64,000 nt of DNA from Eledone cirrhosa (GCA_964016885.1 OZ024741.1:365242001-365306000); one strand, 5' to 3'. Shown: positions 38,951 through 46,335, counted from the first letter of the stretch. Numbers and translations are program-made. The notes: a model not told the origin generated them from the letters alone.

Positions 38951-40873
38951 GCTTCCCCTTTGACGGTAAAACAGAAAATGATAAATACATATAGTGTATA
39001 CAAAGGTCAGCTTTTATATATGTGCGCATTCGCAACATTCAACATTTCGAGGAAACTTTATAGAAATACCGCCTTTAGAGAAAAAAGGCGGGACAGTTCT
39101 ATCCAACCCAATATATTAGAGATTTCATTATATAATAAAAAAGATGTTTCGACAGACTGACATAATACGTATATATACAGAGCATATTTACGTACTGTAC
39201 ATATATATATATTTATATATATATATATACATATATATATGTGTATATATACATATACATATATATATATATATATATATATATATACATATATATATAT
39301 ATATATATATATATATATATATATATATATATATATATATATATATATATATATATGCATCCTAGTTAGTATGTGTGATTTTCCTAGTTTACATTGATCT
39401 AATAGTGTTGAGCTATATATATACATGTATGTATATATATTTATACATACACACACACACACTCTCTCTCTCTCACATACACACACACAAACACACACAC
39501 ACACACATATATATATATATATATATATATATGTGTGTATATATGATGTAAAGGAAAAAATAGAGTAACGAGAGCTATCGGTTTAACGATTTCATTAGTG
39601 GAGTTCAGTGACAAAATGATGAGAGCTAAATATTAGGGAAATATAATATAAATAAAATATGATAAAAAGCTTCTTTCAAACTGATAACGAGTGAGTATTC
39701 CCACATGTGGAACTATCATAAAGCAACGGATAATAAGATAAAACATCTCATCTAAACTGTCTACAACAAATGCGTACAATTTCTGATTTCTAATTCTAGG
39801 AGCGATATAATGGCGGTAATAAAAAACATATGTTTGCTCACATGTACATACGTATGTCTGAATGTAGAAGCACAACAGCTTTCCTATATATATATATATA
39901 TATATATATATATATATATATATATATATCACCAGAAACGTATGTACATGTGAGCAAAGATATGTTTTTTATTATCATCATTATAAATATATGTATATAT
40001 ATATATATATATATGTACCATATATATAAGCACGCACAGTCACACATATGCGCACATGGCCATACATACACACACACACATATATATATATATATACATA
40101 TAGCCCCCCTACCCTCACATGCATACATATATTCCAGTGTAAAATGTAAGCCAAAATAGCAAAGCAAACCACACGCACACACACACACATATATATATAT
40201 GTTTGTATATATAAATATATATATATATATATATATATATATATATATATATATATATATATATATATATATATATATATATATAATAGAGAGAGAGGGG
40301 GGATAGAAAGAGAGTGGGAGATAGAGAGAGTGGGAGAGAAGGAGAGAGAGGGAGAGAGAGACGGAGATGTGTGTATATATTGATATATATATATATAATT
40401 ATGTTTATATGTAAGCGACTTGTTTCTTGTTTTGATATTGTTTTGACACATATGCATCTGTTATACGGCTTGTTTCTAAACCATCTTGCAGCATGTACAC
40501 AGCATCATGTGTGAGCACCTTTATATCTGAAATTGAATTGCCAGGCTGAAGAAGCGAATGAATGCATTTCTTCATTCGTTTCACCTCTCTGGTTTCTTTT
40601 ATGTGTATCATTGCTAGCAATATATATATATATATATATATATATATATACAATTAAGTTAAAAAAATTACATCTACATATGCATACTGAAATACTAGTG
40701 TGTATATGAATACACACACGTATACATATGTATATGTAACAAGTCTTTCACTGGTTGCTTTACTGTGAGCACCCAGCTATTCTGTATGTAAACACACAGA
40801 CAAACCGGTTTTTAGAGTCATACTGGTTTTTGAGGGAACACCTTCCCTCTATTCTCCAGAAGGCCAGACAAGG

Positions 40874-40918
40874 AATATTGAACTAGTTTCGTTGTTGTTA
40901 CAACTCATCAGCAATATT
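40874..40918 (-). ncRNA. Type I hammerhead ribozyme
   Basis: Exact reverse complement of 41315-41359. Confidence 0.9.
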
Positions 40919-41314
40919 TACCTATCTACCTATCAAAAACCAGTATGACTCTAAAAACCGGTTTGCCTGTGTGTTTACATACAGAATAGCTGGGTGCTCA
41001 CAGTAAAGCAACCAGTGAAAGACTTGTTACATATACATATGTATACGTGTGTGTATTCATATACACACTAGTATTTCAGTATGCATATGTAGATGTAATT
41101 TTTTTAACTTAATTGTTTAAGCGTCAGTCATACAAAAGTGAGTTACAAACGAAACGAAATTTAATTTCGTTTCGTCATTTGTTTTTATCGTCTCCGCTGA
41201 ACCGGTGCGTACTCACACTCTATGCAAATTAGTCTGCCCACTACTAATTTTCATAGAAAAAGCATATAACGATATGTGCTTTTACAATTCTCCAGAAGGG
41301 CCGGTAGATAGGTA

Positions 41315-41359
41315 AATATTGCTGATGAGTTGTAACAACAACGAAACTAGTTCAATATT
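41315..41359 (+). ncRNA. Type I hammerhead ribozyme
   Basis: aatattg CTGATGA gttgt-aaca-acaac GAAA ctag TT caatatt; palindromic stem III ACTAGT. Confidence 0.9.
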
Positions 41360-42579
41360 CCTTGTCTGGCCTTCTGGAGAATAGAGGGAAGGTGTTCCCT
41401 CAAAAACCAGTATGACTCTAAAAACCGGTTTGTCTGTGTGTTTACATACAGAATAGCTGGGTGCTCACAGTAAAGCAACCAGTGAAAAACTTGTTACATA
41501 TACATATGTATACGTGTGTGTATTCATATACACACTAGTATTTCAGTATGCATATGTAGATGTAATTTTTTTAACTTAATTGTTTAAGCGTCAGTCATAC
41601 AAAAGTGAGTTACAAACGAAACGAAATTTAATTTCGTTTCGTCATTTGTTTTATATATATATATATATATATATATACATAGAGAGAGAGAGAGAGAGAG
41701 AGAGAGAGAGAGAGAGAGAGAGAGAGAGAGAGGGGGAGAGAGAGAGTATACAGTGTTAGAAAGTAAGGCGACACAAACAAGATATGGATGATTTCCCTTC
41801 GTCAGTTGTCTACTACGGCTCACAGATGTTCCAGCGCATTATAAACAATATATCTATCCGTAGCACGTCCATAGACTTTTATCTATCAAAAAGCCATGAG
41901 GGAAAGAAGTGATAGCGAAGAGAGAGAAAGAAAAAACGAATAAAAAAAGAAACGAAAAGAAGAAAACATACCGATAGAAGGGGGAAACACAGGGCAATGG
42001 CGCATGTGTGTGTGTGTGCGTGTGTGTATGTGCGTGCGCGTGTGTATATGCGTGTGTGTGTGTGTGTGTGTGTATAGTTCGATTTTAATAATTGTTTGCA
42101 ATTTTTGTCTTTGCTTTCGTCTTGAAAGTCCTGGTCGAGTGCTTCATGGCGCACCTTTGTTTTGTTCATTTTGAAAAAATGTGTCACCGTGTTTTTCGAG
42201 GCAGTGGCTGCCTGATACCTTCACATCATGTTACATGACACTAAGATGGAGGATTACTATTGTAATGTTACTAACTTGCTCTAAAGAGGCTAATTTTCCT
42301 GAACGCCTGCTCCATATGGACTGTCACCAGCAGATAGAGCAGTAGAATCTACTTAATTAGTCCTGGAAGAAGGAATCTAATTTTGTACCCACATGAAATC
42401 GTCCTTCGCACTCTGTTTTCATTTGAATCGGTATCTTAAAGATACTAGTTTAATCAAAACATCGAATGAGTGGGAAGGCGATCGAAGATTTTTCAGTCGT
42501 ATCCGATGTCTTCGTTTCAGTATTATATATATATATATATATATATATATATATATATATATATATATATGTGCATGTA

Positions 42580-42730
42580 TATATTTAGCTATTCCTCGCG
42601 CCAACTCGAGGTATATGATTTTTAAAGCGATGAAATACCAATGAAGGTTGGAAAATCACTGATGAAGGACTATTTTTTTCATATGTAACCCATATGCAGC
42701 CACGCAGCACTCAATTCTTCTCATGTTTTT
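42580..42730 (+). mobile_element. Family A fragment
   Basis: Reverse complement of 1449-1595. Confidence 0.75.
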
Positions 42731-44294: not shown

Positions 44295-44739
44295 ATACCT
44301 TCCTGCCAGATTGTTGAACATATATACTTACCTTATGCATATTAACGGCTGAGTAGCCCAATTTGCATATCGAGTGGGTTAATCGGCCGGGTGCACCGAA
44401 AACGGCTTAATACGGGATGTTTGTTTACAAACACACCGAGCATTATAATAAATGTTCGGTGAATCCATACGTACATATATATATATATGTGTGCCTGTAT
44501 GTATATATATATATATACATACTACTGTATGTCTGTATACATATATGTATGTATGTGTACATACTTATATTTAAGTAACAGCCGTACTAAGAGTGGGAAA
44601 TGAAATTTCGTTTCATTTTGTCCGTTTATCGTTTTCGGTGCACCCGGCCGATTAACCCACTCGATATGCAAATTGGGCTACTCAGCCGTTAATATGCATA
44701 AGGTAAGTATATACGTTCAAGAATCTGGCAGGAAGGTAT

Positions 44740-44782
44740 ACGTTGCTGACGATAGCTAATAAGCTTGAAACTAGTACAGCGT
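44740..44782 (+). ncRNA. Type I hammerhead ribozyme
   Basis: acgttg CTGACGA t-agct-aata-agct-t GAAA ctag TA cagcgt. Confidence 0.8.
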
Positions 44783-45611
44783 TCCTTTGTCAGTGTTGAA
44801 CAAACGAGCAACAATGGTTGCTGGACACTACGGCTTAATACGGGATGTTTGGTTACAAACACACCGCGCATTATAATAAATGTTCGGTGAATCCATACGT
44901 ACATATATATATGTGTACGTGTATGTATATATATATATACATACTACTGTATGTCTGTATACATATATGTGTGTACGTGTACATACTTATATATATATAT
45001 ATATATATATATATATATATATATATATATATATATATATATATATATAATGCATTTCAGGAAAAGAAATGGGAGTACGTGTCTGTGGCCGCCTGCCTCT
45101 GTGTGTATGTATGTATGTGTATGTGTATGTGTGTATATATGGATGTATGCAACAGAGTGTATTTGTATGCGTGTATGTGTCTATATGTGCGTACATGTAT
45201 GCACATATATATATATATATATATATATATATATATATATATATATACACACATGTGTGCGTGTGTGCGTGTGTACGTTTATATACTTACGCGTGTGTAT
45301 GGACGTGTGTGTATGTATGTGCGCATGCATATATGTGTGTCTGTGTGGGTGTGCGAACGAGCAAACTTGAATTATGGCAGATACTTTTACACGCCTCTGC
45401 CCGCATAGTAGTAGTTTGTTCACCAAATGCGAGTGGTGGATAAGTCGCGCGTGAATGAATGCAGCCAGTGGTCCCATTGGTCTTGTCAATGGGACGAGGT
45501 GACGCCTCAAATTCTTAGCCAATGACTAGGCCGCTTAAACAGGATGTTGTCAAGGGATGGGGATGAAACAGACTGAATATTATCAGTATGAAGAAATGCC
45601 TTGTAAACGAT

Positions 45612-45750
45612 AAGCATATCTGAGAACCTTACGAGTGCAGAGACTGGTCGATCTATAATAGATCCTGCCTTGAGCTGATCGTCGGAGAAACATGTGTAAT
45701 ATGTTATAAATTGTGTTTTAATGCATCACTGATTCCTCGTTATCTATCTA
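45612..45750 (+). mobile_element. Family D pLTR with decayed hammerhead
   Basis: agcatat CTGAGAA ccttacga...tcgtcgga GAAA catgtg TA atatgtt. Confidence 0.65.
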
Positions 45751-45814
45751 TATGATATTTTCCTATTACCATCCCTACTACCCTAAGTATTGAGTACTCT
45801 GGTGCATATATATA

Positions 45815-46335
45815 TGGAAAAGAAATAAGATTTCGCTTCAAGCATAGCTTTATACAATATGTATAAAAATTTAGTATCTCCAAAGAAATACGGTTCTAGG
45901 AAGACGGGGGGCTAACGCCTTCTGGTGATGTCCAGCAGAAGTCAGGGGGACAACCGTCTATGCATTTCAGGCTTAGCGGGCCTTCGTCAGCATGATCGCT
46001 GCCACCGTTTGCGACTGCTGGACTAGAAGACAGCCGAAAATACATAGTTTTCTCGTCTGTGTAAATGAGGTGATTAATTTCATTTGCATATGAAGCTGCA
46101 TAAGTTGGCTCGACTTATAATAGAAAAGAAATAAGATTTCGCTTCAAGCATAGCTTTATATAATATGTATAGAAATTTCGTATTTCTAAAAAAAATACGG
46201 TTTTAGGAAGCCGTAGCTATGCAAACACCGGGGCGGGGGGCATCACCAGCAGGCGTTAGCCCCCCCCCCAGTTATTTGCATAGCTACAGCTTCCTAACAC
46301 CCTATTTCTTTGGAGATACGAAATTTGTATACATA
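45815..46335 (-). mobile_element. Retrozyme-like mini-element, ~306-325-nt monomer, with hammerhead at 45951-45998
   Basis: gaaaagaaataagatttcgcttcaagc at 45817 and 46123; inverted piece at ~46240-46335. Minus strand: CTGACGA aggc-ccgctaa-gcct GAAA tgca TA. Confidence 0.75.

Follow-up and report, generated by a model that had tools for sequence, protein, structure and literature searches.

Short hammerhead-bearing repeat families in the genome of the cephalopod Eledone cirrhosa carry a putative snRNA-type promoter block

Introduction

Non-long-terminal-repeat (non-LTR) retrozymes of animals have been described by Cervera and de la Pena (2020; PMC7229834) and by Li, Clavereau and Pollet (2026; bioRxiv 10.64898/2026.07.22.740005), and the portion of PMC7229834 drawn on here models for them ligation by an RtcB-type enzyme and copying driven by Penelope-like elements (PLEs). 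Their strong transcription and their mobilisation are treated as open questions in the portions of this literature that we cite, with PLEs called a candidate. PLEs are themselves characterised, in the cited part of PMC8557442, by partial tandems, by inverted copies truncated at the 5' end, by a tail that stands at one end and by a bias towards microsatellites. For a promoter carried within a hammerhead repeat the closest precedent, as far as the cited sections of the newt papers go, is newt satellite 2. We compared with these systems three elements, A, B and C, that lie between positions 40,647 and 46,335 of a 64,000-nucleotide (nt) stretch of one strand of Eledone cirrhosa DNA (GCA_964016885.1, OZ024741.1:365242001-365306000, from a 3.0-Gb assembly). 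This whole stretch is referred to below as the window, and positions are counted from its first letter.

Elements A, B and C represent three families out of at least six in this genome, all made of short, protein-free, hammerhead-bearing repeats that are present in tens of thousands of copies and that have the sequence characteristics of non-LTR retrozymes. We put at roughly two in three the probability that families A to F are non-LTR retrozymes with a promoter like that of newt satellite 2, that they pass through predicted RNA circles, and that PLE enzymes copy them into TA repeats by the full mechanism set out below.

Hammerhead-bearing repeat families

A preliminary description of the window had taken the three elements for non-coding, multi-copy hammerhead repeats with a Penelope-type insertion structure, and the genome-wide comparison supports this. 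The pattern octamer-N62-92-CTGANGA, which joins a perfect octamer to a hammerhead core, has 38,479 matches in the genome, against 450 for the reversed pattern used as a control; 98 of the first 100 matches listed were assigned by eye to families A to E. The listed matches include further families, namely B2 (88 nt from octamer to core), D (85–93 nt) and E (90 nt, one copy). For each of A, B and C, 30 loci were compared, which are the best-scoring matches and are therefore biased toward close copies. As the preliminary description had anticipated, the octamer and its spacing are conserved across these copies (octamer in 30/30 A, 27/30 B and 29/30 C), and the hammerhead core pattern is intact in 30, 28 and 21 of the 30 central copies, respectively. 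Within C, the block from octamer to proximal sequence element (PSE) departs from the commonest letter in 19 of 1104 cells, compared with 230 of 4614 downstream, in copies that are not independent of one another. The longest open reading frames (ORFs) beginning with ATG reach 20 (A), 71 (B) and 49 (C) amino acids, in agreement with the earlier view that none is credible.

Copies of family A are 97–100% alike and very young, and all 31 of the matched copies that were counted, with overlapping loci of one array dropped, contain a run of 6–10 T. The family A sequence is also found in assembled contigs of four sequencing runs that carry three organism labels. A metagenome scan for an octamer together with a hammerhead returned 98 stretches; none of the 80 examined folds as a hammerhead, and these matches were attributed to chance.

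A blind sample of 94 arbitrary 10-kb stretches (940 kb) contains 60 hammerhead-like folds of two types. Those with a long helix II, typical of PLE ends, have no perfect octamer 70–110 nt upstream in this sample. Among the short canonical folds the octamer is present in three of four B copies, in the single D copy and in neither of two C copies, which are cut off by an inversion. The same sample yielded a new 311-nt tandem repeat, family F, with a canonical hammerhead and no octamer.

The three elements had been said to share little overall similarity. This does not hold for A and B, which are clearly related across the region from promoter to ribozyme and hence are not independent. Local alignment z scores are 14.5 for A–B, 26 for A–B2, 10.6 for B–D and 5.6 for D–E, with weak values (0.4–3.6) for pairs that include C, and for most pairs of diverged families the best local alignment falls on the stretch running from octamer through TATA box to hammerhead. 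Since the promoter block is common to the families, they look, from these alignments, like one diverged clade rather than three inventions, with C the least certain member.

The promoter block and host snRNA-type genes

Small nuclear RNA (snRNA)-type genes of the host were retrieved with Rfam models, giving 16 distinct promoters of RNA polymerase II (Pol II) genes (U1, U2 and U5) and six of RNA polymerase III (Pol III) genes (three U6, RNase MRP, U6atac and RNase P). Near-duplicate array copies were left out, as were U6 and U6atac matches without promoter-like flanks, which are likely retrocopies (L152, L159, L160, L189-L200, L289-L293). The 16 Pol II promoters have TCAG or CCAG at −55 to −58 and a TATA-like box near −30. 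An octamer, or a form of it with one mismatch, stands at −76 to −78 in five of the six Pol III promoters (three U6, MRP and U6atac) and in none of the 16 distinct U1, U2 and U5 promoters; the host RNase P promoter has the TCAG and lacks the octamer. The Pol III genes U6, U6atac and MRP of the host have the octamer as their proximal element, and the idea that it is the distal element of U1, U2 and U5 was rejected because it is absent from those promoters. The preliminary description had proposed an internal snRNA-like promoter, and the elements do contain a module that matches host snRNA genes, but its octamer is no part of the host U1, U2 and U5 promoter. This host arrangement can be seen from −300 to +1 at loci L146, L147, L148, L186, L288 and L207 and at the U1, U2 and U5 loci, and a pyrimidine-rich distal element near −260 appears, by eye, to be common to host U1, U2, U6 and RNase P.

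The octamers of the window copies, at 41222–41229 (+) in A, 44666–44673 (+) in B and 46082–46089 (−) in C, stand where they had been reported, and their distances of 100, 80 and 99 nt to the CUGA of the hammerhead agree as well. The octamer of A has the T-octamer-NAG context found in the host U6 and RNase MRP promoters, and is followed by a putative PSE and TATA-like box (41238–41270, +) in which the PSE begins with CCAC and the box occupies 41263–41270; the predicted transcription start (+1) is near 41294. The promoter block of B (44666–44713, +) has a TCAG element from 44682, TATATA at 44708–44713 and a predicted +1 near 44738. That of C (46041–46089, −) has a TCACC element from 46073; its TATA box, decayed in the window copy, is present with the spacing typical of the family in 26 out of 27 distinct variants, and one more octamer lies in the C region at 46274 (−). 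Across the window as a whole, octamers are not significantly enriched (10 against 5.9 expected, with 10 reached in 7 of 100 shuffles).

At 16 nt past the start of the octamer the families have TCAG (B and D), TCAC (C), CCAG (E) or CCAC (A). We used this position as an anchor and modelled its distance to the TATA box, which is 22–25 nt in the 16 Pol II promoters and 27–32 nt in the six Pol III promoters, the anchor being assumed to lie at octamer+16 in five of these six. The modal distances in the elements are 22 (A), 23 (B), 24 (C), 24 (D), 21 (E) and 24 (F), and these 21–24 nt fall short of the 27–32 nt of the Pol III promoters. In flies, the spacing between PSE and TATA box differs by about 4 nt between Pol II-type and Pol III-type snRNA genes. 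Insect snRNA promoters are bipartite, with the sequence of the PSE setting the polymerase, according to the cited part of PMC1761439. Judged by sequence, the TCAG element and TATA spacing of the elements match host Pol II genes.

A matrix built from U1 and U2 alone placed the PSE at −55/−56 in seven of seven distinct held-out U5 rows, and the U1/U2/U5 matrix reached its maximum, among 25 offsets, at octamer+16 in B, C, D and E. Its scores are 12.5 for D, 8.0 for F, −2.4 for E, −5.5 for C, −11.2 for B and −14.4 for A. Real promoters scored by leave-one-out matrices range from 4.3 to 32.3, with one at −3.4, so that D and F lie inside the range; the score of D corresponds to a background fraction of 1e-5. 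A blind best-of-90 test gave P values of 0.0003–0.023 for D and 0.012 for F, the latter with a score of 7.7 at 77 nt before the hammerhead. By these sequence scores D and F match host promoters strongly, B, C and E weakly and A not significantly, and the promoter reading would extend to A, B and C through shared position, spacing and homology. The octamer itself appears dispensable, because family F lacks it.

Three further observations concern families D and F. Upstream of the family D octamer (L166, L168, L169) a degenerate block of octamer plus TCAG occurs again ∼32 nt upstream, two to three times. The family F array at L255:8654-10000 scores well for a promoter of the U1/U2 type. Its helix I has a 3' strand similar to the distal element of the host; this strand lies ∼258 nt before the predicted start of the next unit, and the likeness may be coincidence.

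Hammerhead folds and predicted circles

The type I hammerhead with a palindromic helix III that had been noted in each element is present in all three. It occupies 41300–41375 (+) in A, with its core from 41322 and a predicted cut after 41352 (GUU); 44725–44800 (+) in B, with its core from 44746 and a predicted cut after 44776 (GUA); and 45925–46010 (−) in C, with its core from 45990 and a predicted cut 3' of 45959 (AUA). The hammerhead core pattern has five matches in the window (0.38 expected), four of them in A and B. C was missed by the pattern because it has GAAAT in place of GAAAC, and its hammerhead was placed by reading and folding the sequence; helix I of the window copy has a mismatch at its base. 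Rfam Hammerhead_HH9 matches A alone, with an E value of 4e-6 and under the gathering score, B and C not being among the best 150 of 164 matches. Rfam microRNA matches in the window were dismissed as TA/TG repeats below threshold.

Helices I and II pair in the hammerheads of A, B and C. In helix III a palindromic loop caps one base pair. The helix has no fold on its own, and between two copies it pairs at −6.7 to −8 kcal/mol. Such a dimer arrangement of hammerheads through helix III is described in the cited part of PMC4209133. Folded as circles, the stretches from cut to cut are more stable than shuffled sequences, with z scores of −9.5 (A), −9.4 (B), −10.8 (B2) and −4.8 (F).

The window copies of A, B and C have one hammerhead per strand, so no monomer would be released from them in cis. 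At least two intact hammerheads on the same strand are found in 11 of 19 A insertions and 10 of 28 B insertions, and the family F array in L255 has consecutive hammerheads; the A and B arrays with two or more hammerheads are likely source loci. A pure array of ∼30 family A units at G000:C1:5738350-5751968 is a further candidate source locus. In the cited part of bioRxiv 10.64898/2026.07.22.740005, cleavage was seen in one of nine Xenopus retrozyme dimers tested, and for this reason self-cleavage activity cannot be assumed here.

Insertion anatomy and Penelope-like elements

Each element is a partial tandem with an inverted piece and TA flanks, as the preliminary description had stated. Element A begins with an inverted, 5'-truncated piece (40647–40930, −) that ends at the short 3' end of the family and includes a hammerhead core (40886–40911) without the promoter block. 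Its plus-strand array (40933–41652) consists of a partial unit (40933–41185) and a full 467-nt unit (41186–41652), and stops at the long 3' end, adjoining (TA)n. The tail between the two fixed 3' ends (41587–41652, +) contains a GAAA-rich hairpin (41612–41648). Element B has an inverted array (43984–44404, −) that ends at the long 3' end and includes an octamer (44361–44368) and a hammerhead core (44263–44288), followed by a plus-strand array (44402–44990) of a full 428-nt unit and a partial unit running to the short 3' end; its tail (44574–44629, +) contains the terminal hairpin (44595–44624). Element C (45815–46120, −) is a decayed and deleted copy, followed within 46123–46335 by a partial upstream unit (46123–46235, −) and an inverted piece (46238–46335). 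The reported periods of 467 nt for A and 428 nt for B were recovered; the ∼306 nt given for C is true of the window copy, but this is a deleted version and the family unit is ∼320 nt (other copies ∼315–320 nt). The terminal hairpin described for each element is clear in A (−13.4 kcal/mol) and B (−7.5 kcal/mol) but weak in C (−4.3 kcal/mol).

An inverted piece accompanies 15 of 19 independent insertions of A, 14 of 26 of B and 18 of 30 of C, and nearly all insertions exceed one unit (19/19, 26/26 and 26/30, respectively; 71/75 together). TA directly follows the 3' end in 30 of 32 cases for A, 36 of 41 for B and 33 of 49 for C, and each family has two preferred 3' ends ∼50–70 nt apart. This is the insertion pattern given for PLEs in the portion of PMC8557442 cited above. 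Remnants of autonomous-type PLEs are common in this genome: PLE-like tblastn matches occur in 50 loci, one of 12 fragments scanned exceeds the Pfam cut-off for GIY-YIG, and two others have weak matches to reverse transcriptase (RT) and to GIY-YIG. A Neptune-like PLE family in the genome has, by eye, two ends ∼59 nt apart. A match between B2 and this Neptune-like family (z 7.7) was dismissed as low complexity. No unit joined to an RT/GIY-YIG ORF was seen in the sampled part, less than 0.1%, of the genome.

Several other features of the window and of the compared loci relate to PLEs or to insertion into TA repeats. A decayed PLE at 5300–8200 (+) has RT motifs and, at the C terminus, a GIY-YIG region, ends at a TA run, and contains a hammerhead-like fold with a long helix II near 8025. 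Hammerhead-like folds of two PLE-type families, without the octamer, lie at 4874–4935, 12465, 18271 and 13674. Within the PLE 3' region at L037:469-860 lies a stretch with a perfect likeness to the distal element of host snRNA genes. Another short element with inverted pieces, in which no hammerhead was found, is inserted into TA at 43746–43870; it has copies near 5002–5193, 8241–8488, 16140–16278, 35466–35535 and 45775–45805, and is very common in the genomic flanks. A truncated copy of family B with an inversion, lacking promoter and ribozyme, lies at 18556–18818. At L292:1200-1620 a U6atac copy runs straight into an inverted element of family D, with TA/CA repeats on the flanks; the join resembles a template switch made by the machinery that copies the elements. 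Retrocopies of U6 and U6atac lie within or beside TA repeats at L159, L191, L192 and L290, which suggests that the TA-targeting enzyme also copies snRNAs.

A proposed cycle and its alternatives

The account that best explains these features would be a cycle in which a POU factor and SNAPc are brought in by the octamer, PSE and TATA box together with a polymerase, most likely Pol II, with a predicted start ∼56–57 nt past the PSE, just 5' of the hammerhead. In arrays of at least two units the polymerase would cross the promoter of the next unit, placing promoter sequence within the RNA. Two hammerheads may then join by pairing of their palindromic helices III, cleave the RNA and free a monomer, as their fold and published retrozymes suggest, and a host RtcB-type ligase would close the monomer into a circle, following the model in the cited part of PMC7229834. 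To judge from the insertion anatomy, a PLE enzyme with RT and GIY-YIG activities would prime at fixed sites close to the terminal hairpin and copy its way around the circle, so producing more than one unit and often an inverted piece. A promoter that lies upstream of its own start would be copied only if the next unit is read through, and the runs of six to ten T in A would block Pol III, which points to Pol II; we infer from the spacing and these T runs together that Pol II is the most likely polymerase.

A number of points weigh against this account. The eight PLE 3' regions that were compared with the units gave no real match, and no autonomous partner was found among them. None of 30 C insertions has two intact hammerheads on the same strand, and GUU, at the predicted cut site of A, is a weaker cleavage triplet. 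The B promoter block has no extra conservation (20/1108 cells off the commonest letter, vs 74/4170), and the octamer and TATA segments each lie in a predicted RNA hairpin, so that selection on the RNA could explain part of the conservation. The assumed position of the Pol III anchor bears on the spacing argument. Against the Pol II matrix, A does not reach significance (background fraction 0.097, with offset 0 ranking third), and B, C and E match it weakly (0.049, 0.011 and 0.005) and score below nearly all real promoters. The blind best-of-90 test gives no significance for A, B, B2, C or E (P 0.30–0.82). The combined P of 4.5e-8, or 1.8e-4 without D, is optimistic because the register was first spotted by eye and the families are related.

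The same retrozyme cycle could instead run from a U6-type (type 3) Pol III promoter, with leaky termination giving the read-through RNA. The host distribution of the proximal octamer (5/6 Pol III genes, 0/16 Pol II promoters) is what such a promoter would predict, RNase P shows that TCAG can serve Pol III too, and in B and C no T-rich run follows the ribozyme until close to the long 3' end. We nevertheless consider it unlikely, since the octamer and TATA box stand 4–5 nt closer together than in any host Pol III gene, at a distance that fits Pol II, and since runs of T6–T10 in 31 of 31 A copies and T7 in B2 stand upstream of a next promoter that would have to be transcribed; the T7 run inside the window unit of A (41566–41572, +) would be expected to stop Pol III.

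Alternatively, the octamer block might act as an RNA signal, its hairpins being recognised by the PLE RT, a ligase or an RNA-binding protein, while transcription came passively from neighbouring promoters. The hairpins over the octamer and TATA segments, the failure of A against the promoter matrix and of B, C and E in the blind test, and the possibility that the spacing persists by shared ancestry alone would all fit this. It is made improbable, in our view, by an octamer that is identical in five families although its pairing partner varies and leaves mismatches, by the scores of D and, without an octamer, of F at the level of real promoters, and by the same extended octamer upstream of the TATA box in host U6 and MRP. 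That the units are pseudo-LTRs of autonomous PLEs, present as solo or truncated ends, would suit their insertion signature, a tail length like that of the Neptune-like PLE of this genome (∼59 nt) and the relationship of Xenopus retrozymes to pseudo-LTRs in the cited part of bioRxiv 10.64898/2026.07.22.740005, but it is very improbable given that upstream of a unit lies a further unit, an inverted piece, TA or unique DNA, that pure arrays of at least 30 units exist, that an octamer occurs within 1 kb in two of 63 overlapping PLE C-terminal rows, both past a TA run, and that the long-helix-II families of the 940-kb sample (less than 0.1% of the genome) have no perfect octamer at the upstream distance searched. 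The units are no pseudo-LTRs of those autonomous PLEs that were sampled, a possibility that the preliminary description had raised against itself.

Implications

On a still wider reading than this cycle, a promoter inside the circle would solve the problem that keeps external promoters out of short interspersed nuclear elements (SINEs). This lineage would have built a hybrid unseen in the host genes sampled, in which a proximal octamer of the U6 type sits on a Pol II core of the U1/U2 type, and some 40,000 sites may act as POU/SNAPc promoters genome-wide. We would suggest only tentatively, and with appreciable doubt, the wider view that animal retrozymes are self-contained genes with an ancient snRNA-type promoter carried within the RNA circle, that the hybrid promoter operates at ∼40,000 sites, and that the newt-like logic spans molluscs and amphibians. 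One genome here offers a predicted start site and polymerase, a comparison with and without the octamer (D vs F) and PLE-type marks on young copies, so that both retrozyme transcription and mobilisation become testable by ordinary assays. The layout of the host promoters (−77 for the octamer of Pol III genes, −56 for TCAG, and the TATA spacing) should also be useful for U6-type expression cassettes in this animal group.

Comparison with known systems

Our literature search found no report of cephalopod retrozymes or their promoters, and the families may be present in a repeat library by another name. The main text of PMC7229834, in the portion cited, does not contain the words 'octamer', 'Pol II', 'Pol III', 'cephalopod' or 'squid', and that of PMC13282606, likewise in part, contains neither 'hammerhead' nor 'ribozyme'. 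With the animal non-LTR retrozymes of the cited sections the elements share short tandem units, one type I hammerhead per unit, the lack of an ORF, low GC content, a strongly self-paired predicted circle and coexistence with PLEs. They differ in unit length (311–484 nt here vs 170–400 nt in PMC7229834), in that PLE tails and inversions are directly visible in the insertions, and in their promoter block, no promoter being described in the cited parts of PMC7229834 or of bioRxiv 10.64898/2026.07.22.740005.

The EN+ PLEs and the non-autonomous MRC1 of PMC8557442, as cited in part, share with the elements partial tandems, an inverted piece truncated at its 5' end, a tail that stands at one end and insertion into microsatellites. 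The elements differ from them in lacking an ORF, in their canonical hammerhead with a short rather than a long helix II, in tails of 50–70 nt as opposed to 30–40 nt, and in having no sequence match to the PLE ends sampled.

Compared with host snRNA-type promoters, the elements have the same TCAG or CCAG with a TATA box at U1/U2/U5 spacing, and an extended octamer like that of U6 and MRP. They join this proximal octamer to Pol II spacing, which no sampled host gene does. The SM-alpha repeats of Schistosoma, which are hammerhead-bearing and SINE-like, have a tRNA-type internal promoter rather than a PSE and TATA box, and the promoter of newt satellite 2 contains an octamer. In the cited part of PMC6765202, SM-alpha also has a promoter followed by a hammerhead, with a tandem arrangement needed to keep the promoter, but it is described as transcribed by Pol III. 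Newt satellite 2 is, like the elements, a hammerhead satellite with a palindromic helix III that acts as a dimer, and has an internal snRNA-type promoter used by Pol II, according to the cited parts of PMC2220036 and PMC6765202; what sets the elements described here apart from it is a TATA box, together with an octamer that immediately precedes the PSE, as it does in the Pol III genes of this host.

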